Source: Candidatus Curtissbacteria bacterium RIFCSPLOWO2_12_FULL_41_16
GTDB taxonomy: Bacteria > Patescibacteriota > Microgenomatia > Curtissbacterales > GWA2-41-24
Direction: 5' to 3'
Assembly (NCBI GenBank): GCA_001776545.1
Contig: MFBZ01000022.1
Coordinates: 14,065-78,064, forward strand
Length of the DNA: 64,000 nucleotides
The notes beneath the pieces are model-generated. The model worked only from the letters and a program-made list of their open reading frames with translations. It ran no database searches and had not been told where the DNA came from. Within the stretch, counting starts at the first letter, position 1, and the number at the start of each line of letters is the position of its first letter. Below, piece by piece: positions 1,622-55,619 of the stretch. The position numbers were made by a program, and so were the translations under genes.

Positions 1622-1665
1622 GGTACAAATTTAAAATGTAAAATTTTTACTTTTTCAATTTTCAA

Positions 1666-2064
1666 TTATCTAAGTTGTTCATCTAGTGCTTGATTAACCA
1701 AACGATCTGCCTCTTTATTTTGTCCCCTTGGTATGTGGATGTATTGAACTTGGCCAAAATTTGTCTCAAGGGTTCTAATCTTAAATATCAGGTTGCGGAT
1801 TGTGGCATTTTTGACTTTATAAAGACCTGAGAGTTGCGAAACTACCAATTGTGAATCCAGATAAAACTGTAATTGACCTGGATGGCGACCTTTGGCCCAA
1901 GTCAAGGCCTCAATAACGGCAGTATACTCGGCGACATTATTGGTTGCAATACCAATAAAACCTTGGCCTTGATAAACTACAATAGCTTGTTCTTTGACGA
2001 CAAAACCGTAAGCGGCAGGGCCGGGATTACCTCTGGCGCCGCCATCACAAAAGATTTCTATCAT
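1666..2064 (-). CDS. rnhA: Ribonuclease HI
   Basis: 132 aa beginning MIEIFCDGGARGNPGPAAYGFV..., the classic RNase H N-terminal DGG/GNPG signature. C-terminal catalytic residues (HIPRGQNKEADRL) are present. Confidence 0.85.
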   Translation of the reverse strand: MIEIFCDGGARGNPGPAAYGFVVKEQAIVVYQGQGFIGIATNNVAEYTAVIEALTWAKGRHPGQLQFYLDSQLVVSQLSGLYKVKNATIRNLIFKIRTLETNFGQVQYIHIPRGQNKEADRLVNQALDEQLR

Positions 2065-40814: not shown

Positions 40815-40861
40815 TAAATACAGATTATAAACTTAATGTAACACTTGAGCGGAGGAGAATG

Positions 40862-41259
40862 TGGAGATGGAGGGTTTTGAGCCCTCGTCCAAGATTACAA
40901 ATAAAAAACATCTACAAGCATAGTCCAAGCTAAAAGCTAGTCCGCCTGTGGCGGAAATCTTTAAAGTCTCGTTTGAATTTTTAGCCGATTGACGAGCGAA
41001 ACTCAAACAAAGATCGATAGCTTCGATTTTTAATCTGATCAGAATTAAGAATCTACTCCCGGCTGAGTTTGTGCCCCAATGGCTTCACCGAGAAAAAGCC
41101 AAAGAGACAGGTTCTTAAGCTTTATGCAAAAGCCAAAGCTGGTCGAACCGGTGCGACATCTCTGTCTGCACTTAATTTTGATTCAAAGTTTAACGCACTT
41201 TAGAATCGTGTTCGGCTTGCAGTTTTTAAAGTGCAATCCTGTCGAAACGATACATCCCC
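40862..41259 (-). ncRNA. ssrA: tmRNA (transfer-messenger RNA)
   Basis: The minus strand reads 5' GGGGATGTATCGTTTCGACAGGATTGCAC... at the 5' end and ...GGACGAGGGCTCAAAACCCTCCATCTCCA at the 3' end. The acceptor stem GGGGATG pairs with CATCTCC, with one G-U pair. A T-arm (GAGGG/CCCTC) and the conserved UUCGAC(A/G)GG 5' motif are present. The internal tag-like frame reads GCA CCG GTT CGA CCA GCT TTG GCT TTT GCA TAA, giving APVRPALAFA*. smpB lies 1.5 kb away. CCA is not encoded. Confidence 0.75.
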
Positions 41260-41417
41260 TCGTCGAAGCAAGGCTTTGCTTCGACGACCTTAGACCTTCG
41301 GTCTTTGGTCTAGCGCAAGCCTGCTTCTCCTCTCAAAAATTCTGACGAATTTTTGGAAGACTAGAAGGAATTTTAGCAGAAATTAGCTTCAAAATCAAGC
41401 GGCGATGTAATATAAAT

Positions 41418-42134
41418 GTGATGGTCAATTTGCTCTTTGATTTTCTTTTCCCCAAACGCTGTGTTTCCTGCGGAAAGTTTGGCGCCTACATTTGTAAGGG
41501 TTGTTTTTCAAAAATTGAATATATCGAAAAGCCAGTTTGTTCAGTTTGCCAAAGACAGGCAATAGGCGGCAAGACTCATCCGGGATGTCGGAGCCGGTAT
41601 GGCCTTGATGGTTTGGTGGTGGCTTGTCGGTATCGAGGGCCGGTTAAGCGGGCAATTACCAAAGTTAAGTACAAATGGATCTATGATATTGAGAAAATCT
41701 TTGTGGATTTGACAGCAGACAATCTTTGGCGTTTTGATCTTCCGTCTGATCTGACAATAGTACCAGTACCTCTGCATTCAAAAAGAAAGCGATGGAGGGG
41801 TTTTAACCAAAGCGAGATTTTGGCCAAGTCTTTGGCCAAAAAGTTTGGGGTAGACTTGCGAGATGTTCTCATAAGAACTAGGGAAACCAAGAGTCAAGTT
41901 GGACTCAAAAGAGACGAGAGAAAAGAGAATGTCAAAGGGGCTTTTAGTCTCAACGCTATCCAAACCCGGTTTGGAATAGCTTCACAAACCGGGTTTGTTA
42001 GGAGTGTGGAAGGCAAAAACTTTATGCTTGTCGATGATGTCTATACCAGCGGCGCAACCATGGCGGAATGTTGTCGGGTTCTTAAAAAAGCAGGGGCAAG
42101 GCAAGTTTGGGGACTGACAGTGGCTTTGGGTTAG
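41418..42134 (+). CDS. ComF-family phosphoribosyltransferase (competence protein ComFC-like)
   Basis: 238 aa with two N-terminal CxxC pairs and a C-terminal PRTase motif (LVDDVYTSGATM). Confidence 0.75.
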   Translation: MMVNLLFDFLFPKRCVSCGKFGAYICKGCFSKIEYIEKPVCSVCQRQAIGGKTHPGCRSRYGLDGLVVACRYRGPVKRAITKVKYKWIYDIEKIFVDLTADNLWRFDLPSDLTIVPVPLHSKRKRWRGFNQSEILAKSLAKKFGVDLRDVLIRTRETKSQVGLKRDERKENVKGAFSLNAIQTRFGIASQTGFVRSVEGKNFMLVDDVYTSGATMAECCRVLKKAGARQVWGLTVALG

Positions 42135-42517
42135 GCTTTCAAAACATCAATGTCATATTGCCAAATCTTTTGGTCACTTGTAATTAGGGTTAAACTTTCG
42201 ATCTGAGATTGAGAAATTAACAATCTGTCGAATGGGTCTGCGTGGTAGTGAGGCAATTTTTGTATACCCAAGACGTGCGTCATTTGTATTGGTAATATAA
42301 TAAATCCGGATTGTTTTATTCCTTTTTCAAGAGTTATTGAAGTTTTTAATTTACCTTTCGCTCTTTTTATTACTATTTCCCAGATAGTGGCGGCGGATAA
42401 AATTATTGTGTTTTTAGGATTTTTGAGGATGTTGAATAAGTTTTTATCGAGTCTTTTTTTGTTTTCCATCCACCATATGAAGATATGGGTGTCCAACAAA
42501 AAGCCTTTGCTACTCAC
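42131..42517 (-). CDS. vapC: PIN-domain toxin VapC
   Basis: 128 aa with an LLDTHIFIW N-terminus and the acidic residues of a PIN fold. Its start overlaps the antitoxin stop. Confidence 0.7.
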   Translation of the reverse strand: MSSKGFLLDTHIFIWWMENKKRLDKNLFNILKNPKNTIILSAATIWEIVIKRAKGKLKTSITLEKGIKQSGFIILPIQMTHVLGIQKLPHYHADPFDRLLISQSQIESLTLITSDQKIWQYDIDVLKA

Positions 42518-42743
42518 CGTAAAATAGCTTGTTTATTTCTGGGTCTTCTTCATCAAAATCATCAGAAACCCAAATCTTCCCTTTCCATAAGCCTGGCTTG
42601 CGCGGCTTGAGTTCTTCTTTGTAGGGAGTGAGTTTGACGACGGGTTTGCCGGCTTTGGCAATTATAACCTCTTCGCCTTTTTGTGTCTTTTCTATAAGTT
42701 TTGAAAGATTGGTTTTTGCTTGGTGAATATTAAATATTTGCAT
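42510..42743 (-). CDS. Phd/YefM-family antitoxin
   Basis: Start trimmed to MQIFNIHQAKTNLSKLIE..., the typical Phd/YefM N-terminus. The gene is 8 bp into the VapC ORF. The longer 115-aa ORF would run into the tRNA region. Confidence 0.65.
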   Translation of the reverse strand: MQIFNIHQAKTNLSKLIEKTQKGEEVIIAKAGKPVVKLTPYKEELKPRKPGLWKGKIWVSDDFDEEDPEINKLFYGE

Positions 42744-42831: not shown

Positions 42832-42915
42832 GGAGGGTGGGCCGGACGGCAAGGCACAAGTTTGCTAAACTTGCTGGGCGAAAGTCCAGAGTGGGTTCGA
42901 CTCCCACACCCTCCG
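42832..42915 (+). tRNA. tRNA-Ser (anticodon GCT)
   Basis: Hand-folded cloverleaf: acceptor GGAGGGT/ACCCTCC, anticodon stem CAAGT/ACTTG with loop TTGCTAA, a long variable arm, T-arm GTGGG-TTCGACT-CCCAC and discriminator G. Confidence 0.8.
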
Positions 42916-42923
42916 CTTGATTA

Positions 42924-43010
42924 GGTGGGGTGCGAGAGTGGATTAATCGGATTGTCTTGAAAACAATTGTGGCAGCAATGTCACCGTGGGTTCGAATCCC
43001 ACCCCCACCG
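42924..43010 (+). tRNA. tRNA-Ser (anticodon TGA)
   Basis: Acceptor GGTGGGG/CCCCACC, anticodon stem ATTGT/ACAAT with loop CTTGAAA, an 18-nt variable arm and T-arm GTGGG-TTCGAAT-CCCAC. Confidence 0.8.
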
Positions 43011-43228
43011 CCGAAACCCTTGGGTTGCTCCAAGTCCCATCCACTATGGTCAATTAGCCTATTGGGGCTTGCCAAAAATTCGCAGAAAAGCTTCAGTGTC
43101 CCAGTTATAGCCTGTAATGTTTAAAATCGCCCAAAATGCCCTAAAGGTAATCGCCCACGGTTCTAAGCTTTTGTCGAAAAACAGCCAAAACTAGCAATTT
43201 TTTGTTGAAAAGAGGCTTATTGAAGAAG

Positions 43229-44548
43229 TTATTGGATATTAAGTTGGCGGTCGATTAGCTTGAACCTTGAATTAACACCTTTGAGGATTTTGATGCGTTC
43301 TTCCGGGCTTCCAAACTGTAGTATGTGTAGTAAATAATCTCTCAACATATCAGTTTGTGTTTGGGTATATTCCATCTTGATTTGTGATCCAGCATTATTG
43401 TGAGGCGTCATTTCAAATCTTGATGATTGGTCAGACATCACTGCAAATTTGAGATTCTGTAATCTCTTAATTTCAATCTTGAATTCCTGCATGAGATATG
43501 AGGTATTCAGTCTTATTTCGGGAAGATAGCCGATTAGTTGTTTTATCAATTCTTGCTCGGTAATGTATGGCTCAGGACAATCATACTTTTTGATCCTGTT
43601 GCAATGGTAGTAAATATGGGAGTTTACGATATTTGCTCTTGTCCTCCTGTATTTAATCTCAGCAGTGACACTGCCGCCGCAGCTTCCGCAGATACATATT
43701 TTCTTAAAAGGGAATAATTGTTTATTCCATTGCCTCGGTGCGACCTGAAGCTGTATTTGCACCTTTTCAAAAGTCTGTTTTGATATTAGCGGTGGGTGAG
43801 TACCCTTATACCAGGTGTCCCCATACTTAAACTCACCGTAGTAAAAGGGGTTTTGCAGAACAAAGTATACTTTGCTAAGCGCCAGTCTGCAGCCGTTTTT
43901 GGTTGTAAATTTAACGTCATCAAGCCATTTTTTAACCATCCTGCCGGAAAATCCTTTGTATGCAACCTTGTAAAACATTTCCTTCACAACTGGTGCCCGT
44001 TCAGGATCAAGTTCTACTATTGATATCCGGTTTTCTTTAAGAATATTTTTGTAACCAATTGGTGCTACTCCTGGCCGAATGCCAATCTCGCACTTATTTC
44101 TAAGCCCCCGTTTTACATTTACTCCCCGGTTGTCGTTTTCTAGTTTGGCCTGAGAGCAGAGAATCATAAGTAGAAATTTCTCGTTTGGGTTATTACTAAA
44201 TGTTTGTGAGTAGGTTTTAATTTGAACCAGTTTCTCTTGATCCATCAAATCAACAATTTTTCCCAAATCTCCGGCATTTCTGCTTAAGCGGTCTGGTGCC
44301 CAAGTTATAATGCCGCTAAGTTCACCTTGCTCGATATCAATTAGGAGTTGGTTGAATACTGGCCTTTGCCCGGAGAGTTTTGCCGAATGGCTTTCTTCTC
44401 TAATTTCCTTAATATGTAAGCCTTCTCGGTTAGCCAAAGTCTGCATTTCCTTTATTTGAGAATCGATGCTCATTGCTTGTCTTTCATCAGATTCAGAAGA
44501 TTTGCGGGCATAGAGGCAATAGTTTATCTTTGGGCTTTGACTATCCAT
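43229..44548 (-). CDS. Large serine recombinase (resolvase N-terminal domain + recombinase domain + zinc ribbon)
   Basis: YARKSSESDERQAMSIDSQ catalytic-serine motif at the N-terminus. About 440 aa with a C-terminal Cys cluster (CICGSCGG...CNRIKKYDC). It lies directly downstream of a tRNA-Ser pair. Start trimmed to MDSQ. Confidence 0.8.
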   Translation of the reverse strand: MDSQSPKINYCLYARKSSESDERQAMSIDSQIKEMQTLANREGLHIKEIREESHSAKLSGQRPVFNQLLIDIEQGELSGIITWAPDRLSRNAGDLGKIVDLMDQEKLVQIKTYSQTFSNNPNEKFLLMILCSQAKLENDNRGVNVKRGLRNKCEIGIRPGVAPIGYKNILKENRISIVELDPERAPVVKEMFYKVAYKGFSGRMVKKWLDDVKFTTKNGCRLALSKVYFVLQNPFYYGEFKYGDTWYKGTHPPLISKQTFEKVQIQLQVAPRQWNKQLFPFKKICICGSCGGSVTAEIKYRRTRANIVNSHIYYHCNRIKKYDCPEPYITEQELIKQLIGYLPEIRLNTSYLMQEFKIEIKRLQNLKFAVMSDQSSRFEMTPHNNAGSQIKMEYTQTQTDMLRDYLLHILQFGSPEERIKILKGVNSRFKLIDRQLNIQ

Positions 44549-44721
44549 ATTCAGGGGTACAGAGTACCGCAATAAACATGGAAGTCTAGCTAGGGGAACT
44601 ACTATGGCCAATTGCGAAAGCCTCTCCTCTCGATAATCAAGCCTCTGTTTAGTATAATTCTGGCTCTAATATATGCTTGGCAAATAGATATTTAAAATCC
44701 GTTGATTGTTAAGGAGATTGA

Positions 44722-46023
44722 ATGCATAATGAAGTTGACATGCCTGGTCAAGGACAAAAAGAGATTCAGCTAGATGAGAATCAAAGAGAATTATCTCAAC
44801 GAGTTTTTCAAAGGGCAAGGCAATTAATACAAAAATTCGGAGAAGACTCTACTTGGGGTGAAAGTTTACCAAAAGAAGTAGTTTATCTAGATGTTGAAGA
44901 TTCTGGAGATAGACGAGGCAAAAATAGAATAGTGATTTGGGGAGATGGTGAAGGTGACAAAGTAATCATTTTTTACAATAAAACTTATTCGAAGGGTGTT
45001 TACTTAAATAATCAAGTTACTCTAAAGGACGGTGAGGTAGTAAGACATAATGCCGATATTGAAGATTGGCATGGCGACTCTCCAATTATTAATCCCCCGT
45101 GGCAAGAGCCACCTACACCTGAGATGGTAAAAGTCATGGGCTCCCGTTTTCACCCAGCAGAGTATTCTCACGGTTCACTTAACCTTTCTGAGATTGATAG
45201 ATTTTTATCAGAGGGTAAAGTGGTCTCGAATCCGAAAAAGGATCGAATAGTTGAAGAAGCTATAAAAAGATTAAGTGAGGTTGAGAAAGAAAGAGTGTTT
45301 GGCAAACCCCAAGATGCTGCCCAAAAAGCGAGAGATATATGGTCGGAAGAAGCGATTTTAAGAGATTTAGAAAGAATTAAAAGTTTACCAGAGGAAGAAC
45401 AAAGAGATGTTGAAGAAAGATTAGCCTTATCTTACGTAGAAGCTGCTTTTAAAGAGCTTTCCGCTATAAATTCCCTTGCCAACGACACTCCTGAAGCCGA
45501 AACAAGGCAAAGAATTTTGGATGAAGCAAGAGAGGCAATCAGACGAGAGAAGAAGTTTCATGTCCTAGCGAAGCAGCTTTCTAGAACTGTTTCCGGTGAA
45601 CCGATTGATTGGTCAAAGATCAAGCTTAGAGAGTTTGGCCGGATGTACGAGAGGCATGAGACTTCAGAGTATTGGCAACTTGCAAGACTCGTTTATAAAA
45701 AAGTAATCCAGCTTTCCGAAAAAGATGGCGATACAGCTATTCAAGCTGCGGCTACAATGGAGCTTGCAAGAGTGTTAGAAAAGTTGGGTAGTGACATTAC
45801 TGAAGTCGATAGACTTTATCAGTCTGCGCATCAACTTAATTGGGCTTCAAGAGGTGATAGAAACTACAATAGGCAGGTAACCATTGAAGGTAATATCTTA
45901 AGAAGAAATTTGAAAAAAGGGGATGTTGGTGGTACTTTAAACTCAGCTAAAAGTTTAGGCTGGATGCTGCTTCACGACCCCAAGCAGGCAATCGTACTAG
46001 GTAAGAAGGTTTTAGGTGGTTAA
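44722..46023 (+). CDS. Hypothetical protein (433 aa), island cargo
   Basis: No recognisable motif; charged and helical. A TPR-like gene follows 4 nt later. Confidence 0.4.
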   Translation: MHNEVDMPGQGQKEIQLDENQRELSQRVFQRARQLIQKFGEDSTWGESLPKEVVYLDVEDSGDRRGKNRIVIWGDGEGDKVIIFYNKTYSKGVYLNNQVTLKDGEVVRHNADIEDWHGDSPIINPPWQEPPTPEMVKVMGSRFHPAEYSHGSLNLSEIDRFLSEGKVVSNPKKDRIVEEAIKRLSEVEKERVFGKPQDAAQKARDIWSEEAILRDLERIKSLPEEEQRDVEERLALSYVEAAFKELSAINSLANDTPEAETRQRILDEAREAIRREKKFHVLAKQLSRTVSGEPIDWSKIKLREFGRMYERHETSEYWQLARLVYKKVIQLSEKDGDTAIQAAATMELARVLEKLGSDITEVDRLYQSAHQLNWASRGDRNYNRQVTIEGNILRRNLKKGDVGGTLNSAKSLGWMLLHDPKQAIVLGKKVLGG

Positions 46024-46026
46024 TTT

Positions 46027-46722
46027 ATGAGTGAACAAAAACTTAGTGCAAAAGAACACCACAGGCAAGCAGAAGAGTTAAGGGAAAGCGACAGACATCT
46101 GGAAGCTTTAAAGGAGCTAGATCAAGCTGTCGTTCTATACCAGGAAGATAAAGACTATCAAGGTATTTGTGAAGCATTGCAAAGTAGAGTGCTAACTTTT
46201 AAGCATCTTTATTTTCTTTCAAAAGATACAGCCTTTGCGATAATTGCCCAAAAGGAGGCGGAGGCAAGTCTTGAGGTTGCCCAGCAACATAGTGTTGGCA
46301 ATAAATTGGGGTCTTGTTACTTTAGACTCGGAGAAATTGCAATGATCTTTGACAACTTTCCTCAAGCAATTGATTGGTATCAAAAGGCGCTTGAGGATTA
46401 TCAGGGTAGCCTTTCAGAAAAAGGTGACTATAGATATCATCTAGGTGAAGCACTATACAAAAATGGCCAAAAAGAAGAAGGCAAGAAAACAATTCTGGCA
46501 GGACTTGATGAGATACAAAGAGGTGCACCCGAAGTTGATCCTTTTTTAGTGCATGTTTGGGAATCAGGTCTTCATATGAAGCTAGCCGATCTTTTAAGAG
46601 ACGATGAGCCAGAAGAAGCAAGAAAGCATCTAGATGAAGCCAGGAAAATTGCTGATTCTGACCAAAGACTTATCATTCGCAGAAGACAGATTGAAGAGGT
46701 CGGGAAATCTTTTCGAAATTAG
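46027..46722 (+). CDS. TPR-repeat protein
   Basis: 231 aa with tetratricopeptide-like repeats (AIDWYQKALEDYQG..., YHLGEALYKNGQ...). Confidence 0.5.
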   Translation: MSEQKLSAKEHHRQAEELRESDRHLEALKELDQAVVLYQEDKDYQGICEALQSRVLTFKHLYFLSKDTAFAIIAQKEAEASLEVAQQHSVGNKLGSCYFRLGEIAMIFDNFPQAIDWYQKALEDYQGSLSEKGDYRYHLGEALYKNGQKEEGKKTILAGLDEIQRGAPEVDPFLVHVWESGLHMKLADLLRDDEPEEARKHLDEARKIADSDQRLIIRRRQIEEVGKSFRN

Positions 46723-46743
46723 CTTGTTATTTTCCTAATAATT

Positions 46744-47553
46744 ATGTTTGGAAACACTATTATTTCTAAGTTGGAAGCGGAAATTTCAAAAAAACCATCT
46801 GTCATTGGTCTCGTTTTGGTTGGATCTTACGCTCGAGAAAAAATATACAGTGCAAATGAATATTCCGACATGGAAGTTTACGTCATAGTTTTGGACGGCA
46901 ATGTATCCAAAGTCGAGAAAGATTTAATTGAAATTGCAAAACAACTGGGAGAGATTATATTCCACTACAAAAATAGGTGGGCTGGATTTTCGGTTGTTTT
47001 TGATAACTTATTTCGTCTTGAGCTTCCAGTGATTAAACAGTCAGATATTAAAAGTGTTTTTTTAAGACCGATTGCGCAACCAGTCAAAATTTTGATAGAC
47101 AAAACCAACGGTGAATTAAAGAAGGCTTTGGATACTAGACAAAAAGAAATAGATATCGAATCTCTGTTTCAAGAAACCTTTTTTGATTTCTGGTATATGG
47201 CTGTTTTGGCAGTGCAATATCTTAAAAAAGGAGAATATTGGAATGCCAGACACGCTCAGGAAGTTGTTCTTGTACCTGCACTTATAAAACTTTTTGAGAT
47301 TCTGGATAACAAAGAAGCTTTAATGCTTGAAACCAATAAAAGAATAGAGCAATTTCTTAGCGAAGAAAGACTAAATGTTCTAAAAAAGATTTCCAGTGTT
47401 TACAATTCAGACAACATAAAGGATGTTTTAAAAATCAGTATGGGGGAGTTTGTAAGCGTTTGTAACGAAATTAAGAAAAAATATGGCTTCAGGTACGAGG
47501 AAGATGTTGTGGATAAAGTTAAACCAAAATTAGACAAACTGCTTGGTTCCTGA
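46744..47553 (+). CDS. Nucleotidyltransferase, ANT(6)/streptomycin-adenylyltransferase-like
   Basis: 269 aa. The N-terminal LVGSYAREKIYSANEYSDMEVYVIV segment fits the Pol-beta-type NTase motif (GS...D.E/D) and the overall size and pattern of aminoglycoside 6-adenylyltransferase-family proteins. Confidence 0.45.
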   Translation: MFGNTIISKLEAEISKKPSVIGLVLVGSYAREKIYSANEYSDMEVYVIVLDGNVSKVEKDLIEIAKQLGEIIFHYKNRWAGFSVVFDNLFRLELPVIKQSDIKSVFLRPIAQPVKILIDKTNGELKKALDTRQKEIDIESLFQETFFDFWYMAVLAVQYLKKGEYWNARHAQEVVLVPALIKLFEILDNKEALMLETNKRIEQFLSEERLNVLKKISSVYNSDNIKDVLKISMGEFVSVCNEIKKKYGFRYEEDVVDKVKPKLDKLLGS

Positions 47554-47887
47554 GTTAAAGCATTAAATATATCGAACTATATCAAATCTTAATTTGAGAC
47601 AAGCCCTTTTTATAATCGCTTGCGATTACATCGCGCGCTCTTGTAACGCAAGAGCGATATAGTGTCTCATTTGTCTCATTTAGCCTCGAAGATGAGACAC
47701 TAAACCTCTCCGATTTGGTACAATACCCATCGGGTGACTATGGGAGCGTTGGGTCCCAGACCCACATGCTCCGCCAAGCGAAGGAAGGTTCGTTCATAGT
47801 GCAAACGAAGTGCACTATGCTTCGCAAAGCGAACATCCTGCCGCCTCCGCTGAAGTGCCGTTTGCGACGGTTTGATTCTGCTACAAT

Positions 47888-48556
47888 TTGGCTGTGAAAC
47901 TCTTGCTTACATCTTCCGGCTTCAGAAATAAGTCTATTGCCAAGGCTCTTGCAGACTTAGTTGGCAGATCTTTTGCTAAAACAAATTTGGCATTTATTCC
48001 TACTGCCGCAAATGTGGAGGAGGGTGACAAGTGTTGGTTGATTGATGACTTAACGAACTGTAAGAAACTTGGATTTAAGATGATAGATATTGTAGACATT
48101 TCTGCCATAGCTAAAGAACTTTGGGAGCCAAGATTAAGTGCTGCAGATGTTTTGATGTTTGGGGGAGGAAATACTTTTCATTTAATATACTGGATTCGAA
48201 AGTCTGGGCTGGAGAAACTTCTACCCCGTTTACTCAAACAGAGGGTGTATGTGGGAATTAGCGCTGTAAGTATGGTCACGAGCAAAAGAATCCTTCTAAG
48301 TGAATCCAAGAAGCTATACTATGAGGACCTGAAAGGTCATCAGGACGAAAGAGGGCTTGGTTTTGTAAGTTTCCAGATTCGGCCACATCTGAATAATAGC
48401 TTTTTCCCAAATGTAAAAGAAGAAATTTTAAAAGAACAGGCGAAAAAGATTCCGGAGCAGATTTATGCTCTTGATGACGAGATGGCAATTAAGGTTGAAG
48501 ATAAGAACATCGAGGTTGTAGGAGAAGGTAAGTATTTACTGCTTAATGTAAGTTAA
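47888..48556 (+). CDS. Peptidase S51 (dipeptidase E / cyanophycinase-like) family protein
   Basis: 222 aa with LLLTSSGF at the N-terminus and FGGGNTFHL..., resembling the S51 Ser-His-Glu triad context. Confidence 0.55.
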   Translation: MAVKLLLTSSGFRNKSIAKALADLVGRSFAKTNLAFIPTAANVEEGDKCWLIDDLTNCKKLGFKMIDIVDISAIAKELWEPRLSAADVLMFGGGNTFHLIYWIRKSGLEKLLPRLLKQRVYVGISAVSMVTSKRILLSESKKLYYEDLKGHQDERGLGFVSFQIRPHLNNSFFPNVKEEILKEQAKKIPEQIYALDDEMAIKVEDKNIEVVGEGKYLLLNVS

Positions 48557-48778
48557 ATCGATGAACCGCACGTGGGAGCTTTACCCGCCCGAATTTTTGA
48601 GGCTGCCAGCTCGGGTGCTATCCCTCCGGGTAGGTGAATTGAAAACCCGCAAATAGTATAATCTATACTCACTCGAACGGTGACTGGTTGCAGAGCGATT
48701 TGCTCTAATTGCTCTCGGAAAAAAGTTCCAACATAGTCAACTAGGCACCGCCGAAGCCCTATAACATTTGACTTCCTA

Positions 48779-49606
48779 GTGTGGGTTAAGTATAATTCGC
48801 ATATGTCGTCAGTTGAAAGAGGTTTTATACCAATAACTGAAGCCCAAAGCGAACGAGTCCGATTCCAGGTTGGTTTACCTGATTTTGTGGACCAAGACAG
48901 GATTGGGGTGAATCTTCGTGAGATTCAGAGGCTGTGCCAAATCGGGGGAATTCACAGGCTTGTGGTTCTTGGTGTTGAAGATTTAGATACTTCCAAGACT
49001 GTGCCTCAAATACTTGGTTTTAATAGCCAAGGTTCTACCTACATGGGGAAAGCCGCCTCTAAGGCTGATGTGTCACCATCAGAAAGTTTTTCTGCACCGG
49101 GGTGGGAAGGTAAAAGTCATCCACAACAGTGGTCAGATGCACTCATTGCTGTCAATATGAACCAAGTAAGAGATAGAATTGGAAATGACAAGAGATGGAG
49201 TGAAGGAATTCGTTCTCCAAAAGCATGGTCGCATTATTTGAACAGAGGTATAAAAGATGGGATTTCAAAAGAGGGGATTGCTCAATTGCTAAACTTGAGA
49301 AATAAAGTTGATTTGGCTATTTTTGCTGCTTTTGTCGGTGCTGCTGCAACAGATGCGGTTCCGCTACCGCGGTGGTTTGACCCACACATACCGAGTGTTC
49401 GCGAGGCTATACAAGCCTACTTTACATGGTCCATAACGTGGAATGTTATAGAGAGGTTCATGGATGGCAAGAGGCCTTTCCTAAGTGATGGGAATAATAG
49501 ATACACCGCCTTCTACGGGCCTGAAGTTGATAGGGCTGTACTCCTCAAGGTTCTTACTAAAACTAGAACGCTGGTAAAGCAAATTGAAGGTCAAGCAACA
49601 CAATAA
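48779..49606 (+). CDS. Hypothetical protein (275 aa)
   Basis: No known motif. Preceded by a repeated ~120-nt upstream module. Confidence 0.35.
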   Translation: MWVKYNSHMSSVERGFIPITEAQSERVRFQVGLPDFVDQDRIGVNLREIQRLCQIGGIHRLVVLGVEDLDTSKTVPQILGFNSQGSTYMGKAASKADVSPSESFSAPGWEGKSHPQQWSDALIAVNMNQVRDRIGNDKRWSEGIRSPKAWSHYLNRGIKDGISKEGIAQLLNLRNKVDLAIFAAFVGAAATDAVPLPRWFDPHIPSVREAIQAYFTWSITWNVIERFMDGKRPFLSDGNNRYTAFYGPEVDRAVLLKVLTKTRTLVKQIEGQATQ

Positions 49607-49879
49607 TTCCCTAAAATTGTATAATCTATACTCGAACGGTGACTGGTTGAAGGGCAATTTGTTCTAATTGCTTTTGGAAAAAAGTTCCAACATAGTCAAA
49701 CAGACACCGCTTGTTAAAACTAAACTTTGCTTATCGCCGAGCCTGACTCGGCTTATCGCAAGTTTGTTTTTCCTCTTCAAAATCGCAAGCGATTTTGAGA
49801 TTTTTACTCTTCTCTTTTAAAATTCATTCCGGCAATTTTGATAGTTGTTTTGTGATAAACTTGTAGTTGGATAGTTTTT

Positions 49880-50455
49880 ATGCCCAAGTTTCATAAAACA
49901 GATCATCATGAGGATCATCATACGGGGAGAATTCTCTCCAAAGAAGAACTTGACGCAAAGCATGCGGCAGCACTTGAGGCCAAAGCGATTATTTCCTGGA
50001 AATCTCCGGAGAGAATTTTTAAGGCAAGATCCAAAAAGTATTTTACCAAGGTCGCTCTCTATGGGTTGATTTTTGTGCTGGCGGCAATTGCTTTTGGCGA
50101 GTTTTTCCTGGTAGGGGTAATTATTGCGGTGGTTTTTGTGGTTTATGTTTTGGCGACGGTTGCGCCACACGTTATCGAGCATAAGATTACCAATATGGGC
50201 ATTATCTCCGGGGGACGGGCGTTTTTGTGGGAAGAGCTGGACTCTTTTTGGTTTGATAAGCGCGGCGATGACAGGCTTTTGGTGGTTGCGACTAATTTAC
50301 ATTTCCCGACTCGCTTGATTATTCTGTTAACGACTGTTTCCGAGCGGACACTCCTAGATATTTTGGAAAAACATATCCATTTTCATCATGGCCCGGTGCA
50401 CACGCTTTTTGACAAATGGGCCAATTCGCTACAGAAGAGAATTAACCTCGAGTAA
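49880..50455 (+). CDS. Hypothetical membrane protein (191 aa)
   Basis: Two TM helices in the centre. Preceded by copies of the R2 and R3 modules. Confidence 0.35.
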   Translation: MPKFHKTDHHEDHHTGRILSKEELDAKHAAALEAKAIISWKSPERIFKARSKKYFTKVALYGLIFVLAAIAFGEFFLVGVIIAVVFVVYVLATVAPHVIEHKITNMGIISGGRAFLWEELDSFWFDKRGDDRLLVVATNLHFPTRLIILLTTVSERTLLDILEKHIHFHHGPVHTLFDKWANSLQKRINLE

Positions 50456-50617
50456 AAATTCAATTGTTAAATTGTTTCATTGTTGAATTGTTAGACTGTT
50501 TTGAGTATCTAGTTCCCTTGTAGTAAAATTCCACTGGGTGCTTGTAGTTTCCGCCAGAGGCGGATCAGCCCATGGGTTCTGAGATCCTCAGGATCGAATG
50601 ACCTTTGGCTGACATTT

Positions 50618-50691
50618 GTCCCTGTAGTTCAATTGGACAGAACGCTTCCCTGCGAAGGAAGAGATTGGCCGTTCGAGTCGGCCCAGGGACA
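50618..50691 (+). tRNA. tRNA-Arg (anticodon GCG)
   Basis: Acceptor GTCCCTG/CAGGGAC, D-arm GTTC/GAAC, anticodon stem CTTCC/GGAAG with loop CTGCGAA, T-arm GGCCG-TTCGAGT-CGGCC and discriminator A. Confidence 0.7.
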
Positions 50692-50850
50692 CAATTGGAA
50701 AGGAAGGTTTTATCCCGACGAAATCTTCTGCAAATTCTATTCGATTAAGAAGAAAAAATGATGTTAAGAATTTTTTTGAAATTATAGGGAGTAGTAACCC
50801 GAAACATTTAGATAAATTTAAACGATTCATGTAAAATATACGGGTATTAC

Positions 50851-50941
50851 GGAGGAGTACCCAAGAGGTCGTACGGGCACCGTCTCGAAAACGGTTGGGG
50901 CCGCAAGGCTCACGTGGGTTCGAATCCCACCTCCTCCGCCA
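50851..50941 (+). tRNA. tRNA-Ser (anticodon CGA), CCA encoded
   Basis: Acceptor GGAGGAG/CTCCTCC, anticodon stem ACCGT/ACGGT with loop CTCGAAA, long variable arm and T-arm GTGGG-TTCGAAT-CCCAC, then GCCA. Confidence 0.75.
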
Positions 50942-51099
50942 CGTAATAGATTGCTTGAGCAATTTAAACGTGGCTGGGACGTTAAATTTTATAGAATAAA
51001 ATTTAACGTCTCGCCTAAGATGTATTATGTTTACATACTCCAAAGTCAGAAAAATAGCATTTTGTCAAGTACCCCTTTTAGTAGACAATCATTCTTCGT

Positions 51100-51965
51100 C
51101 TAGGTTTGCGTTTCTTTAAGCCTGTATTGTTCCGGTGACATTTTCAGTCTTGTATGGATTCTTGCCCTGTTGTAGTAGTTGATTGTTAAATGGATTGCCG
51201 CAATGAACTCACCAAGCGTATCGAATCTGTTAAACTCAAGACCTAAATCAGTCTTAAAGTTGTTGTAGAAAGACTCCTGAAAACCATTTTCCCAAGGTGA
51301 TGATTTGGCGCTCATGGATATTTGAATACCCAGTGAATTAAGGAACTTCGTGTACTCTTTTGATGTGTACTCTGATCCTTGATCGGTATGGATAATTCTG
51401 GGCAAGCTGCCCAGCGTCTTTATCGCATCTACAATCGCCTCAATTACCATTTCTTTAGTATGTCTTGCGGCAACAAACCAACCCACAATTTCCCTGGTTA
51501 CCAGATCCATATATGTTGCCAGGTATACTACCTTTGAAAAGTAGATCATGTGGGTAAAATCTCCAACCAAGACTGTACCGGGTATAATCGGGCAGGTACC
51601 TTTGATTAGGTTTTGATATGGCGCTGGAGCTTTTTTCAAATCCCTTCTTTTCGTCCATCTGGCCTTCCTTTTGTATGGCTTTATGTTATACAGCTTCATT
51701 ACTCGACTCGCCTTACCCTTTTCTTGCCAAGGGAAAGGGCAAGAGCTATTCTTCTGTGGCCATAAGCGGGATTGAGAGCCAAAGTTGATAGAATCTGCTC
51801 CCTTAAAAGTTCATCCTGACGGATTCTGGCTTGGCTATTGGTTTTATATGTTGTTGATCTGGATATTTTAAGAAGACGGCAGAGGAAGGTATGACCAAGG
51901 CTTTTGACCTTAGACTGGATTAAAGCGAGGATTTCCCTTCTTTTTTTTTGACTTCTCAAGTTCAA
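51100..51965 (-). pseudogene. IS3-family transposase OrfB, interrupted (two ORF pieces in different frames)
   Basis: Piece 51699..51965 ends in RRVE, followed by TAATG. Piece 51100..51699 continues with the integrase core. Together the two pieces resemble a full IS3 OrfB. Confidence 0.55.
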
Positions 51966-52182
51966 AGGTTAATACTCCAATGATCTGTTTGAGCTGCGAG
52001 TTTTCATTTTTTAGCCTGTTATACTCAAGGAGGCTGATTGTACCCATGGCTTTTCGAGATAGCCAGGTGTAGATGGTTTTCTCGCTGACTCCATACTGGG
52101 CAGCAACTGCTGCTACTTTCTCGCCGCTCTTTACTTTTGTAAGTATTTCGGCCTTAACTTCGGGATTAACCGGTTTAAACAT
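51910..52182 (-). CDS. IS3-family transposase OrfA (HTH)
   Basis: 90 aa with an HTH segment (AAQYGVSEKTIYTWL) and a leucine-zipper-like C-terminus. Confidence 0.7.
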   Translation of the reverse strand: MFKPVNPEVKAEILTKVKSGEKVAAVAAQYGVSEKTIYTWLSRKAMGTISLLEYNRLKNENSQLKQIIGVLTFELEKSKKKKGNPRFNPV

Positions 52183-52253
52183 TTATTTCACCTCCCAATT
52201 GAAGTATATTTTATGAAGAACTACTGTCTATTTTAAGGGGTACCTGTCGTTTG

Positions 52254-52520
52254 TTAGTTTAACCCTACGCCTTTCTCGATATACTTTTGAATGAGGTGTT
52301 GATATGGAACATGTAGCTTACCTGCTTCTACTTTTACTTTAAGAAGTAACTGTTCTGGAAGCCTTATTGAAATTAGCCGCTTGGTTTTCTTAAGGCTTGG
52401 AAAGACCATGCCTCTTTTGAAATCTGATGGTTCAAAGTACTGCGACAGGTCAAGATTAGCCCAAAATTCTGCTTCCTCTTCCTCACTTTTGAACTTTGGT
52501 ACGACGAGTTGTTTTTTCAT
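52254..52520 (-). CDS. brnA: BrnA-like antitoxin
   Basis: 88 aa with an N-terminal MKKQLVVPKFKSEEEEAEFWANLDLSQY motif and a C-terminal RHH-like segment, located downstream of BrnT. Confidence 0.6.
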   Translation of the reverse strand: MKKQLVVPKFKSEEEEAEFWANLDLSQYFEPSDFKRGMVFPSLKKTKRLISIRLPEQLLLKVKVEAGKLHVPYQHLIQKYIEKGVGLN

Positions 52521-52797
52521 ATAAATTCACCTCCTTTTTATTGATGTCGCGCGAAGAAATAATTCTAATTTTGTCTCCTCTTCTGGTAAAAATCTGGTAC
52601 AGCAATCTTCTATTTTGCGTTTTCCCGATGATAATGAAACGTTTTTCTATTGTTGAGTGCCTAATATCTTCATCAAGGGCATTGTCTGTATCAAAGAATA
52701 CCTGTTCTGCTTCCTCTGGTGTAACATTATGACGTGCGATATGAGCTATATTCGCTTCATCCCATTCAAACCCTGCAACATCATCAAGTAAGCTCAT
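52483..52797 (-). CDS. brnT: BrnT-like (DUF497, RelE-fold) toxin
   Basis: Start trimmed to MSLLDDVAGFEWDEANIAHIARHNVTPEEAEQVF, the hallmark BrnT N-terminus. Confidence 0.6.
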   Translation of the reverse strand: MSLLDDVAGFEWDEANIAHIARHNVTPEEAEQVFFDTDNALDEDIRHSTIEKRFIIIGKTQNRRLLYQIFTRRGDKIRIISSRDINKKEVNLYEKTTRRTKVQK

Positions 52798-53179
52798 TAC
52801 TGTATATACAATATATGTATATATTACTATAATGTTCAGTATTTTGTCAATGATCCGCAACCAGCAGTAAGTAAGAAGAAATGAGACACCCTTTTTTACA
52901 GTGTCACATTTGTTCCATTTAGCCTCGCACGTGAGACACCATGTTCTGAAGATTTGATACAATACGATGGTTAGGAGTAGTGGGGACTATAGGAGCGCTG
53001 GGCTCCAGACCCACGTGCTCCGCTCGTCGAAACAAAGCTTTGCTTGTCGCCGAGTCTGACTCGGCTTAGCGCAAGCTTGTTTCTCCTCTTCAAAATTGCT
53101 TCGCAATTTTGAGATTTTTCTTGTTTCGTAGAATTTTCCTAAATCTGGTAAAATCCCATTGTGCCGATTAAGCGGATTT

Positions 53180-53581
53180 TTAGCTCTCAAGGCGTTTGAT
53201 TTGAGAAAATTTGTCAAAATCGTGATCAAAAGAATAGATTTCTTTGATTTTTTTCTTCTGCATTAAAGCGATATGGTAAGCATCGATAAAACTGATGTTT
53301 TGTTCCATGTAGAAAGTAAAAATTCCCGGAAGTAGTTTGTAATTTTCTATGATAATGTTTGGAATTTGTCCAATAGCAATCATTTTATCAGTTATCTCTT
53401 TTTTGGGAAGTTTGTAAGATCTTTCTAAAGTAAAGATTACCTCCGAAAGCGTTAAAAGACTGATGAAGACTTTATTTTTTTCTTGCTCGATCTTTTTAAA
53501 GATTGTTTTAGTCTTGGATGAAAGTATAGGGTCATCGTCCAAAATAAATCGGAGAATAATATTAGTATCAAGAAGAATCAT
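53180..53581 (-). CDS. vapC: PIN-domain toxin VapC (second copy)
   Basis: 133 aa with an MILLDTNIILRF N-terminus and conserved acidic residues. Overlaps the antitoxin by 4 bp. Confidence 0.7.
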   Translation of the reverse strand: MILLDTNIILRFILDDDPILSSKTKTIFKKIEQEKNKVFISLLTLSEVIFTLERSYKLPKKEITDKMIAIGQIPNIIIENYKLLPGIFTFYMEQNISFIDAYHIALMQKKKIKEIYSFDHDFDKFSQIKRLES

Positions 53582-53901
53582 CGATTAGTTTTTGAAAGAG
53601 TTCCAAGCTGACGGAGTATTTTACGGTCTCTTTCAACGGCTGCTTTTGGCCACGCCTGTTCTTCCCATTTGATCAATTTTTGACCAGTAAGTTTCGGTTT
53701 AATTTTAGGTTTTAGCGAGCCGTAGAGGGACATTATTGAGAAACGTTTGGCGGTTTTCACTTTAACCTCTTTCTTTTTAGTGACAATGAATCTTACTTGA
53801 TCGCCACGTTTCAAGCCGAGCACTTTGCGTACTTGGGCCGGAATAGTTACTTGGCCTTTTTGAGTTATAGTCGTAGGTTGTACTTGCATGGTAATACCCA
53901 A
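53578..53901 (-). CDS. AbrB/MazE-family antitoxin (VapB-like)
   Basis: The N-terminal swapped-hairpin segment (TITQKGQVTIPAQVRKVLGLKRGDQVRFIV) is followed by a basic tail. Upstream partner of the PIN toxin. Confidence 0.6.
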   Translation of the reverse strand: MGITMQVQPTTITQKGQVTIPAQVRKVLGLKRGDQVRFIVTKKKEVKVKTAKRFSIMSLYGSLKPKIKPKLTGQKLIKWEEQAWPKAAVERDRKILRQLGTLSKTNR

Positions 53902-53954
53902 ATTTTAGTATTACTAATGCTGATTGTCAATAGACCTTCTAAATCTGTTAAAAT

Positions 53955-54518
53955 TTGCCTGTCATGGCGATTAAGAGGATTTTTAGTGCTGGAGGAATTG
54001 TTATCAGACCCTTAGGCTACGATCCCGTTTCGAAATTTGACGAAACGGGATCGGGAAAAGAGGCTGAAAAGTGGGAGGTTTTGGTGACTCAGCATTCCAA
54101 ACATAAAGGCTGGGATTTTCCCAAAGGCCATCGGGAAATTTATGAATCGGAGGAGCAAACGGCTCTGCGGGAGGTTGAGGAAGAAGCTGGTGTTAAGGCG
54201 GAAATTATCGAGAGGGTTGGCCAAACGCAGTATTTCTACTGGGAAACGGAAGAGCCCGTCTTCGCCCCTTCGACCCTTCGGTTATACTCAGGGCCATTGG
54301 CTTCGCTCAGGGCTACGGTGGGGAAAGAAAAGGTATTAAAAACTGTTGCTTATTATTTGATGAAGTACGTTGGAGAAGGAGAAGCTACAACTGCTTTTGA
54401 GGTTAGTGCTAAAGTTTGGCTACCAATTGATAAGGTTGAGGAGAAATTGACATTTAAGGATACCAAGGAATTGTGGGAGAAGGCGAAAATCAAGATAGAA
54501 GCGATCAGTGACAAGTGA
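53955..54518 (+). CDS. NUDIX hydrolase
   Basis: Nudix box GHREIYESEEQTALREVEEEAGV. The coding sequence contains an embedded copy of a short GC-rich repeat (~54262-54312). Confidence 0.7.
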   Translation: MPVMAIKRIFSAGGIVIRPLGYDPVSKFDETGSGKEAEKWEVLVTQHSKHKGWDFPKGHREIYESEEQTALREVEEEAGVKAEIIERVGQTQYFYWETEEPVFAPSTLRLYSGPLASLRATVGKEKVLKTVAYYLMKYVGEGEATTAFEVSAKVWLPIDKVEEKLTFKDTKELWEKAKIKIEAISDK

Positions 54519-54579
54519 CAAGTTATAAATTAGAGAGAAGCTCCTTGGGAATATAGTCTTCTGGTATAATTTTGGCGCT

Positions 54580-54669
54580 GGAGAGGTCGCATAGTGGACT
54601 AGTGCGCAGACCTGGAAAGTCTGTATACTCGCAAGGGTATCGAGGGTTCGAATCCCTCCCTCTCCGCCA
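54580..54669 (+). tRNA. tRNA-Ser (anticodon GGA), CCA encoded
   Basis: Acceptor GGAGAGG/CCTCTCC, anticodon stem CAGAC/GTCTG with loop CTGGAAA, 18-nt variable arm and T-arm GAGGG-TTCGAAT-CCCTC, then GCCA. Confidence 0.75.
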
Positions 54670-54761
54670 TCCTTCGCCAAGTCGCCGACGCTCCATAGCT
54701 TTGGCGACGGAGCGGCTATAGGGGTGGCTATGCTGGTGGATTGGAAAGAAGTAAGAAATTC

Positions 54762-54834
54762 GCGCCCATAGTTCAATGGACAGAACGTTAGGTTCCGGAC
54801 CTAGAGGCTAGAGGTTCGAGTCCTCTTGGGCGCA
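54762..54834 (+). tRNA. tRNA-Arg (anticodon CCG)
   Basis: Acceptor GCGCCCA/TGGGCGC, D-arm GTTC/GAAC, anticodon stem TTAGG/CCTAG with loop TTCCGGA and T-arm AGAGG-TTCGAGT-CCTCT. Confidence 0.7.
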
Positions 54835-54839
54835 CACTG

Positions 54840-55619
54840 ATGGAAAGGCAAGAGCCTGAGGTACCAATGATTGTCAAAAAGCGCTGGTTTTTAGATTTTA
54901 AGCCAGAAGAAATTGAGATAATCCGGCAAAATCGAGAAACTGTGGTGGTTGTTGATCTTTGGGCGGCAACAACCAACATTGTTTTGATGCTTGCCAAAAA
55001 ACCTCAAAGATTGATTTTAGTCAGCGACGATAAATTTCCGGAAGCCGAAAAAGTTTATCCCCAGTCAGTTCTAATTGGTCAGAGCAAGGTCATCCCCGAG
55101 GAAAAGTTTGCTTCCTCATCTAATAAATCTTCGGATGTGGATAAGGTGGATATTGCGGGAAAAGTAGTCTTATATGTGACGTTTAACGGGACACGAGTTT
55201 TGGAGGCATTTTCCAGTAATGAGAAGGGGTTAATCTTTGCGGGGTCGATGACAAATCTTGAGGCGCTTGTCTTACGACTGAGGGGTTTGAGCCCCAGTAA
55301 GGTAAATGTTGTGGCGTCTGGAAATTTGACCGGTGAAATGGGGGGTGTGGTTTTTATCGAAGATTTTCTTGGAGCGGAGATTATTGAAAAGAAGCTGAAA
55401 GGTCAGGAGCTTGATTTTCAGGCGGCTGCCGAAATGATGAAGCAGGAGATGCTAAAGTATTACCCAGCTGATTTAGAAGAAGCAGAAGACAAAGTTTGGC
55501 CCTACATTTTTGGGCAACAGACCAACATTTTGCCGACAGCTTTTATCAATAACGAGGGTTTTGTGGAGGCGGTTCGACCCTTCGGTTATACTCAGGGCCA
55601 TTGGCTTCGTTCAGGATAA
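54840..55619 (+). CDS. 2-phosphosulfolactate phosphatase (ComB) family protein
   Basis: 259 aa whose size and pattern (VVVVDLWAATTNIV..., FAGS, VVASGN) resemble ComB-family phosphatases. The start is probably the internal MIVKK at 54867. The C-terminal 16 aa are encoded by a copy of the short GC-rich repeat. Confidence 0.5.
   Translation: MERQEPEVPMIVKKRWFLDFKPEEIEIIRQNRETVVVVDLWAATTNIVLMLAKKPQRLILVSDDKFPEAEKVYPQSVLIGQSKVIPEEKFASSSNKSSDVDKVDIAGKVVLYVTFNGTRVLEAFSSNEKGLIFAGSMTNLEALVLRLRGLSPSKVNVVASGNLTGEMGGVVFIEDFLGAEIIEKKLKGQELDFQAAAEMMKQEMLKYYPADLEEAEDKVWPYIFGQQTNILPTAFINNEGFVEAVRPFGYTQGHWLRSG

Follow-up and report, generated by a model that had tools for sequence, protein, structure and literature searches.

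A family of large serine recombinases (LSRs) in Curtissbacteria-like bacteria of the candidate phyla radiation (CPR; Microgenomates) probably integrates at the 3′ termini of tRNA genes, where remnants of its elements accumulate in tandem. This conclusion, held with fairly good confidence, was drawn from a 64,000-nucleotide (nt) window of contig MFBZ01000022.1 of Candidatus Curtissbacteria bacterium RIFCSPLOWO2_12_FULL_41_16 (assembly GCA_001776545.1). The region under study is window 42832-54834, and the contigs and loci compared with it carry L numbers. The element, named E1, covers 43012-48751 (5.74 kb) and holds an LSR gene at its tRNA-proximal end together with four other genes. The next stretch, E0 (48752-49710, plus strand), is a one-gene cassette of 959 bp. 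The LSR is intact and stands on the tRNA side of a block that some strains have and others lack, a short core is repeated at both ends of the block, and this geometry is common to the LSR family.

The LSR gene (43229-44611, minus strand) encodes Resolvase, Recombinase and Zn_ribbon_recom domains (PF00239, 5e-21; PF07508, 5e-15; PF13408, 6e-07; the last two above the cut-offs). Among the PHROGs, the protein matched the phage integrase phrog_95 at 8e-61 and DNA invertase at 1e-19. Its translation keeps the catalytic motifs YARKSS and DRLSR. It aligns to the SPbeta integrase structure, and its identity to solved LSR structures is low (best E = 2.5e-14). The open reading frame (ORF) has 460 amino acids, and the likely start at Met22 gives 439. 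The gene converges with that of tRNA-Ser(TGA), 216 nt separating its stop codon from the tRNA 3′ end. An earlier note, made from the sequence alone, had placed a large serine recombinase 3′ of the tRNA-Ser(GCT)/tRNA-Ser(TGA) pair, and this was confirmed.

Dozens of contigs of the same aquifer community were retrieved by exact protein matching; most of them are 99.9-100% identical to the window, and E1 sits at the same place in most contigs. A strain represented by L049-L051 is 98-99% identical across the genes for a 267- and a 191-amino acid protein and is without window 43012-48751. In this strain, the 3′ part of tRNA-Ser(TGA) (= window 42954-43011) is followed by a 25-nt spacer, a second tRNA-Ser(TGA) and CGAAACCTATAACATTTGAC..., which equals window 48752 onward. 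The comparison with relatives proposed in the earlier note separated E1 from its surroundings, E1 being absent from L010, L011 and this roughly 99%-identical strain. E1 is flanked by the repeat CACCGCCGAA[A/G]CCCT, the two copies of which match at 14 of 15 nt. The left copy, the attachment-site (att) core of attL, CACCGCCGAAACCCT (43006-43020, plus strand), overlaps the last 7 nt of the annotated tRNA-Ser(TGA), and the identity of L010 and L049 to the window ends here. The second copy, CACCGCCGAAGCCCT (48746-48760, plus strand), forms the E1/E0 junction, at which three left contexts converge. The hexamer CACCGC (43006-43011) is common to all junctions; the acceptor stem contributes its last 4 nt, and the discriminator G and a single C complete it. 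The left end of E1 (43012-43075, plus strand) comprises the P′ arm and the recombinase terminator hairpin; an alignment of 30 junctions shows it to be conserved in homologous elements, with 67-92% identity to L052-L058. Its right end, D2a (48646-48751, plus strand), ends in CACCGC. A blastn-short search for partial copies of all six tRNAs of the region gave only the 15-nt core at 48746 and no displaced tRNA fragment. As regards the direct repeats of tRNA 3′ ends expected by the earlier note, a short att-like repeat was found, and a long displaced tRNA 3′ end was not.

A contig end shared at 48991 was also considered as the right end of E1 and was rejected. Because other contigs start at 48851 and the last single-nucleotide polymorphism (SNP) between the window and L049 is at 48850, the end at 48991 is explained as a haplotype branch point of MEGAHIT at k = 141. 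Therefore, E1-bearing and E1-free strains coexist in many samples. The exact 48965-48991 pattern had no match in viral and metagenome collections, although JGI contigs are known to contain it; the metagenome collection therefore lacks these samples and offered no alternative right-hand context.

The surroundings of E1 were compared with related genomes. ARAGORN and Rfam agree on six tRNA genes in three groups, as the earlier note had described. They are tRNA-Ser(GCT) (42832-42916), tRNA-Ser(TGA) (42924-43012), tRNA-Arg(GCG) (50618-50692), tRNA-Ser(CGA) (50851-50941), tRNA-Ser(GGA) (54580-54669) and tRNA-Arg(CCG) (54762-54835). All are complete, lie on the plus strand and carry different anticodons. 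tRNA-Ser(TGA) is intact at 55 bits, and its 3′ end is the host (B) arm of the left junction; the last two tRNAs are unoccupied. DnaG matched at 67% identity in L011, a metagenome-assembled genome (MAG) of Candidatus Curtissbacteria, and at 59% in the related MAGs L009 and L010; the 267-amino acid protein is annotated in Curtissbacteria RIFCSP genomes. The order in L010 is SmpB, ComF, tRNA-Ser(gct), tRNA-Ser(tga), the 191-amino acid homologue, tRNA-Arg(gcg), tRNA-Ser(cga), NUDIX, tRNA-Ser(gga) and DnaG, with all five tRNAs within 3 kb, and the arrangement in L011 is similar. The 191-amino acid homologue of L010 has 82% amino acid identity and starts no more than about 170 nt after tRNA-Ser(TGA), a near-identical tRNA that is followed by sequence unrelated to the window. 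In the window, the gene for this membrane-like protein is at 49880-50455 and that for the NUDIX hydrolase, which adjoins tRNA-Ser(CGA) in L010, at 53964-54518, both on the plus strand. Homology to L010 resumes at 49711-49798 (plus strand) with a host trailer and hairpin, D3-D4, which lies downstream of the ancestral tRNA site. From this synteny in L010 and L011, the tRNAs, the 191-amino acid gene and the NUDIX gene are conserved chromosome. The tRNA groups are chromosomal backbone and not boundaries made by integration. Compared with the relatives, the window has about 6.7 kb inserted between tRNA-Ser(TGA) and the 191-amino acid gene and about 3.0 kb between tRNA-Ser(CGA) and NUDIX. In the relatives, different small accessory genes occupy these spacers, a LAGLIDADG-like gene and a DUF4926/DUF6883 pair among them, and the tRNA cluster is therefore a variable hot spot.

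This synteny decides the case of the whole region. The earlier note had taken the tRNA clusters as island ends and 42832-54834 as one or two integrated elements, possibly in tandem. One or two large islands with tRNA 3′-end duplications, as with tyrosine integrases, would be in keeping with the tRNA genes at both ends and in the middle, with the recombinase, insertion sequence (IS) and toxin-antitoxin (TA) genes between them, and with the 19 identical nt (CGTGGGTTCGAATCCCACC) of tRNA-Ser(TGA) and tRNA-Ser(CGA). The identity itself, noted earlier as 18 nt, is real, and its reading as an att duplication fails: the two tRNAs, both complete, differ in anticodon and share their T-arm here, and the identity therefore shows no more than tRNA paralogy. 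The same tRNA set, the 191-amino acid gene and NUDIX stand near dnaG in L010 and L011 without the recombinase, IS and TA blocks, and the search for partial tRNAs gave the 15-nt core at 48746 alone. No tyrosine recombinase (PF00589) matched any ORF at 42.8-54.8 kb. Base composition and GC skew, a further check proposed by the earlier note, gave no clear step or island signal across the region. Islands of this extent are thus extremely improbable. What stands of the earlier claim is an LSR element with a tandem cassette; backbone genes lie inside the region, and the IS3/TA insertion is separate.

The LSR family was examined with a protein scan of metagenome contigs, which gave 80 loci with LSR homologues at 45-85% identity, and ARAGORN was run on these loci. 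Upstream of the LSR genes, 164 kb were free of tRNAs, whereas the 142 kb on the downstream side held 73. The nearest tRNA downstream lay on the strand opposite to the LSR at 43 of 43 loci and was a tRNA-Ser 30 times (anticodons TGA, GGA, GCT and CGA), a tRNA-Gln 11 times and a tRNA-Trp twice. Where the flank was at least 450 nt, the tRNA started 100-500 nt past the LSR stop at 30 of 61 loci (25 of 55 non-redundant ones). The flanks of LSR relatives in IMG/VR are too short to show tRNAs. About 65 nt past the tRNA end, including the LSR terminator hairpin, are conserved across the family (GAAGCCCTATAGTTC..AGACCC..CTATAG..GGGCTTGCTAA), and therefore belong to the element and not to the host. The unoccupied tRNA-Ser(GGA) of the window and the occupied copy in L066 are identical to CTCCGCC and diverge at the next base; L066 and L090 share the same tRNA-Ser(GGA) 3′ end, followed by an LSR element. 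Two further LSR lineages of 516 and 536 amino acids (L134/L135 513-2123; L138-L141 about 1551-3161), which are 25-28% identical to the window LSR, abut, with the same arrangement, the 3′ ends of tRNA-Asn(GTT) and tRNA-Met(CAT). Their elements measure 10-13 kb and carry MerR-like, Prim-Pol and XRE genes with the same pair of 433-amino acid and TPR genes as E1, which looks like a reduced member of this larger group.

Some tRNA blocks are inverted among the relatives. L009-L011 have Ser(gga) inverted, L011 also Ser(cga)/Arg(gcg), and the right part of L003 has Ser(tga)/Ser(gct) inverted. Such inversions would suit a recombinase that acts mainly as an invertase or resolvase rearranging the tRNA cluster and not as the integrase of an element. 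However, its Recombinase and zinc-ribbon domains are typical of integrases, its phage integrase score is far better than its invertase score, and no inverted repeat pair brackets an invertible segment in the region. The presence/absence polymorphism is that of an insertion and not of an inversion. In L056, family-type left arms lie beside two tRNA-Ser genes in opposite orientation, and the inversions could have arisen as a side effect when elements that had integrated in opposing directions recombined. The invertase role is very improbable, and the recombinase is better regarded as an integrase.

Beyond E1, the same core recurs. E0 contains a single gene (48803-49606, plus strand), that of the 267-amino acid protein, whose homologues elsewhere stand in ordinary chromosomal contexts. 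At its left boundary three different contexts converge (the window, L049-51 and L045). Its right end, D2b (49609-49710, plus strand), is 86-89% identical to D2a (105 nt) and ends in CACCGC, and in L050 a methyltransferase-like ORF comes directly after this hexamer. Inside E1, the D6-D7 module (47658-47774, plus strand) consists of TGTCTCAT iterons, a -10-like TGATACAAT (TGnTACAAT) box and a tRNA-like acceptor/T-arm minihelix ending in CTCCGC. A contiguous D6-D7-CTCCGC-D3-D4 copy stands at 52897-53111 (plus strand; the D6-D7 part to 53023), its D3-D4 being a copy of the sequence that follows E0 at 49711. By its sequence, in which a right-end module runs into what resembles a host trailer, this copy looks like a scar of the attR type. 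L069 has a D6-D7 module fused directly with a family-type P′ (left) arm and LSR; therefore, D6-D7 behaves as the right arm of an element or as a tRNA-like target. The internal scar ending at 47769-47774, which resembles a right end (P arm), suggests that E1 itself is composite. Rfam at permissive thresholds matched tRNAs alone over 47.4-53.4 kb, and the D2 and D6-D7 repeats are therefore in no described RNA family. Five repeat or homology breakpoints (43011, 47774, 48751, 49710 and 53023) all fall at C[A/T]CCGC, and 10 of the 14 such hexamers on the plus strand of the window lie within 42.9-54.7 kb. We infer repeated site-specific recombination at one core from this pattern, which would leave an intact element beside the tRNA and then remnants.

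Further observations concern these repeats. In D6 (window 47658-47700 and 52897-52939; L053, L054, L069, L106 and L110), the motif TGTCTCAT(T), 8-9 nt, occurs twice in direct and once or twice in inverted orientation before the TGATACAAT -10-like box. By its make-up, D6 looks like an operator/promoter that would read outward toward the tRNA-like minihelix. Window 47845-47868, which reads GCCGCCTCCGC and then TGAAGTGCC, resembles a tRNA-Ser acceptor end joined to the start of a family-type left arm (cf. L068 and L072) and may be another att scar just upstream of the S51 peptidase gene. An intergenic hairpin motif (..GCAAGYYTGYTTYTCCTCTTCAAAAT and a stem-loop) is conserved at window 41311-41355, 49754-49798 and 53067-53111 and in relatives (L010 4365-4410; L011 4826-4870 and 9897-9929). 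It often lies downstream of tRNA genes and beside the 5′ end of the tmRNA gene and is probably a terminator-type signal.

The following mechanism is proposed. The Ser/Arg tRNA cluster upstream of dnaG would serve as a landing pad for small integrative elements moved by LSRs, E1 having inserted at the extreme 3′ terminus of tRNA-Ser(TGA) with E0 following in tandem. Dimers of the LSR would bind attP on an excised circle, made of the D2 or D6-D7 right end, the core and the conserved P′ left end, and also attB, made mostly of the conserved T-arm and acceptor of the tRNA. The enzyme would then cut at a dinucleotide within the core, rotate and religate. An attP × attB crossover inside CACCGC is the presumed event, and the identity of the P arm, the excised circular form and the arrival order of the elements are likewise presumptive. 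Since CACCGC spans the acceptor-stem end, the discriminator and the first C, an exchange there would leave the mature tRNA intact. The distal half of attB is apparently poorly constrained, so that a regenerated tRNA end would be usable again and new elements could stack beside the tRNA. An attB that lies mainly in the T-arm and acceptor would explain both the use of several tRNA-Ser isoacceptors and the tandem stacking. In D2a, GTTCCAA is 14 nt away from the core, and in the tRNA, GTTCGAA is 9 nt away; this 5-nt offset, noticed post hoc, recalls the model of the LI integrase, in which the zinc-ribbon motif is shifted by 5 bp between attP and attB (PMC3783163).

Several points weigh against integration and stacking at the tRNA terminus. 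Neither a circular (attP) junction nor a precise excision product was present among the fetched contigs, and Pfam, NCBIfam and PHROGs searches recognised no excision factor, replication or transfer gene in E1. The attP and attB sites of LSRs are pseudo-palindromic, about 40-50 bp long around a 2-bp crossover; the dyad symmetry of the reconstructed attP (12 of 28 positions) is not significant, as shuffles average 12.7. The empty-site strain has an extra tRNA-Ser(TGA) copy at the junction, which makes the pair of states before and after insertion imperfect. LSRs normally do not recombine attP with attL, and tandem stacking needs a relaxed B′ half-site, which is assumed here. The missing circle and excision product, together with the lack of transfer and replication genes, the host-like composition and the constant place of E1 in most contigs, would also be expected if E1 were ancestral DNA lost by deletion in the L049-type strain and the relatives, with a recombinase that has been domesticated or is decaying. 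This is unlikely. The deletion endpoints would have to match the tRNA terminus and the repeated core by chance, and two outgroups are without E1. Homologous LSRs show the same geometry beside different tRNAs in many unrelated contexts, and the 433-amino acid/TPR module recurs in larger LSR elements with Prim-Pol and XRE genes beside other tRNAs. Insertion of E1 at the tRNA end therefore remains the preferred explanation of the strain difference.

Two contigs place E1 elsewhere. Over 6,008 nt it is 100% identical in L005, where it adjoins another tRNA-Ser(TGA) whose flank holds RecG and SpoVR, and in L030, where it adjoins a tRNA-Ser(GGA) whose flank holds GroEL and PaaX. The chance that these junctions are real is roughly even. 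The empty sites of the two hosts were not recovered, and the only other contig of the L005 host ends inside the tRNA. Both contigs run on through E1 into window-type E0 up to the graph branch at 48991, which weighs further against the preferred explanation: they could be assembly chimeras across the shared 30-nt tRNA 3′ end. E1 would then have a single location, and the probability of this is put a little below one half. Both contigs switch exactly where the tRNA sequences become identical (window 42984), the T-arm native to the L005 host is the same, as seen in L133, and L003, a contig of similar assembly, is a hybrid within its tmRNA gene. On the other side, homologous LSR elements do use the TGA, GGA, GCT and CGA tRNA-Ser genes, the final k of 141 is far larger than an overlap of 30 nt, and a composite of E1 and E0 could have moved as one unit via the D2b end. 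As to L003 itself, its positions 13353-13753 correspond to the tmRNA gene of the window (40861-41259, minus strand) and hold a complete tmRNA, the 5′ part of which is window-type and the rest from another Curtissbacteria species. It is flanked by two divergent ComF genes. Either the assembly of L003 joined two species, or L003 recombined at a conserved RNA gene.

The gene order after the LSR is that of the 433-amino acid protein, TPR protein, nucleotidyltransferase, S51 peptidase, 267- and 191-amino acid proteins. The 433-amino acid protein (44722-46023, plus strand) has an N-terminal beta domain and helical repeats. It had no match in Pfam, NCBIfam, PADLOC or PHROGs; its AlphaFold model has a pLDDT of 63, and Foldseek gave only generic TPR-like matches with E > 0.01. 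The TPR-repeat protein (46027-46722, plus strand) is always encoded beside it, and the pair is a conserved module of related LSR elements. The cargo consists of an ANT(6)/Lnu-like nucleotidyltransferase (46744-47553, plus strand), which scores below the cut-offs for named resistance enzymes, and a PepE-like peptidase S51 (47894-48556, plus strand). Among seven proteins, PHROGs matched the integrase only, with no capsid, terminase, tail or lysis gene, and no relaxase or Mob match was found in Pfam, NCBIfam or PHROG searches of E1. E1 also occurs in the community as mosaic variants. In L015, a 270-nt stretch of the recombinase gene (window 43917-44183) holds 60 SNPs, and L007 and L008 have SNP clusters in the 433-amino acid gene (window 44889-45040). 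The L046 strain carries an antitoxin/PIN pair fused upstream of S51, with the break at window 47976.

Downstream of the 191-amino acid gene, the order continues with tRNA-Arg, tRNA-Ser, IS3, BrnT/BrnA, PIN/MazE-AbrB, NUDIX and the last two tRNAs. The second insertion, 50942-53950, thus holds the IS3 element, BrnT/BrnA, the D6-D7-D3-D4 scar and PIN/MazE-AbrB. It is a separate, older variable segment, encodes no intact integrase and may contain what is left of an older element at tRNA-Ser(CGA). No near-identical strain without 50942-53950 was seen among the retrieved contigs. The IS element (51064-52249, minus strand) belongs to the IS3 family by its helix-turn-helix orfA (51910-52182, minus strand), its DDE (rve) orfB and its imperfect 32-nt terminal inverted repeats (51066-51097 and 52215-52246). 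orfB (window 51100-51965) is split into ORFs of 88 and 199 amino acids, the rve-domain ORF being at 51100-51699 on the minus strand. This split goes beyond the usual orfA/orfB overlap, and the copy may be inactive. A 3-bp TTT target duplication is possible and not decisive. BrnA (52254-52520) and BrnT (52483-52797 as called) form a pair spanning 52254-52962, and a PIN/VapC toxin (53180-53581) is paired with an AbrB/MazE-type antitoxin (53578-53901), all on the minus strand. A third pair, the PIN/VapC toxin PF01850 (42131-42517) and the Phd-family antitoxin PF02604 (42510-42743), both on the minus strand, spans 42131-42743. All three consist of adjacent matching small toxin and antitoxin genes of type II, BrnA being CopG-like. 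The earlier note had listed repeats, an IS3 element and three TA pairs after the recombinase; the IS3 element and dispersed repeats are there with only two of the pairs, as Phd/PIN lies left of the first tRNA pair and outside the element. In the BrnT/BrnA overlap, a 30-nt indel polymorphism was seen at window 52539 (L012 and L022) in contigs otherwise 99.97% identical. A 43-nt repeat, 98% identical, occurs at window 54269-54311 in the 3′ part of the NUDIX ORF and at 55573-55615 in the 3′ part of a ComB-like (2-phosphosulpholactate phosphatase) ORF, and may be a small inserted repeat lengthening both reading frames.

Textbook and database practice ties tRNA-gene targets to tyrosine integrases. 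The LSR of E1 has the same domain architecture as the phage and island serine integrases (phiC31, Bxb1, A118/LI, TP901-1, SPbeta SprA and staphylococcal CcrA/B), and E1 likewise has its integrase gene beside one end, a short common core and no long duplication. In contrast, the target of the E1 family is a tRNA 3′ terminus (Ser, with Gln and Trp in sister clades), whereas known LSRs usually use intergenic sites or genes that encode proteins. E1 resides in a CPR bacterium, and no directionality factor, which LSRs require for excision, was recognised in it. With tyrosine-integrase tRNA islands (Islander-type islands and tycheposons), E1 shares the tRNA-proximal integrase, the intact tRNA, the tandem remnants and a cargo of accessory genes and TA modules. 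By the Islander definition, the intact tRNA and the internal integrase are present in E1; however, the enzyme is a serine and not a tyrosine recombinase, and the core repeat is 6-15 nt with no displaced tRNA 3′ fragment of 20-50 nt. Elements of the Tn4451/Tn4453 type (LSR TnpX) are also about 6 kb, with a single LSR as the only recombination gene and few cargo genes. Tn4451 has low target specificity, a GA dinucleotide and a Mob/oriT module (PMC5704250), whereas E1 has a specific tRNA target and no recognisable mobilisation gene. Unlike an integron, the region has no IntI tyrosine integrase, and its cassette ends (D2 and D6-D7) show no relation to attC and terminate in a tRNA-like core. The IS3 and type II TA copies (BrnT/BrnA and VapBC) of the second insertion are textbook cases except for the split IS orfB. 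The enzyme is therefore a bona fide LSR and the element a small integrative island, which its target sets apart from the known kinds.

In the Islander paper, serine integrases are not known to target tRNA genes, and the island finder excludes them (PMC4383910). An LSR was present in 27 of 937 elements of tRNA-adjacent islands in the tycheposon preprint, the site not being analysed there (10.1101/2020.12.28.424599). Reviews place LSR sites inside protein-coding genes (PMC5704250), and according to a 2026 survey RNA loci are the preferred targets of tyrosine integrases (PMC13626063). The literature searched gave no description of tRNA-targeting LSRs or of this CPR family, and earlier mentions are possible. 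A broader and more tentative proposal, to which rather less than an even chance is given, is that LSRs fill the role of tyrosine integrases in Microgenomates/Curtissbacteria of the CPR. At least three deeply diverged lineages (25-28% identity) would act at the tRNA 3′ terminus (Ser, Gln, Trp, Asn and Met) with crossover at the discriminator/CCA. An element arm would mimic the acceptor/T-arm minihelix, and only the tRNA half of attB would be constrained, which would let elements and one-gene cassettes pile up in integron-like arrays next to the tRNA.

The window can now be divided into a backbone (tRNAs, 191-amino acid gene and NUDIX), a 5.7-kb element, a 1-kb cassette and an IS/TA insertion. 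If the conclusion on the LSR family is true, serine integrases acting reliably at tRNA 3′ termini would be a blind spot in the detection of islands in CPR genomes. They would also be new unidirectional integrases, and landing pads at tRNA ends, which are universally conserved and harmless to occupy, would have appeal for genome engineering. For the bacteria themselves, such integration would help to explain how the tiny CPR genomes gain accessory genes.

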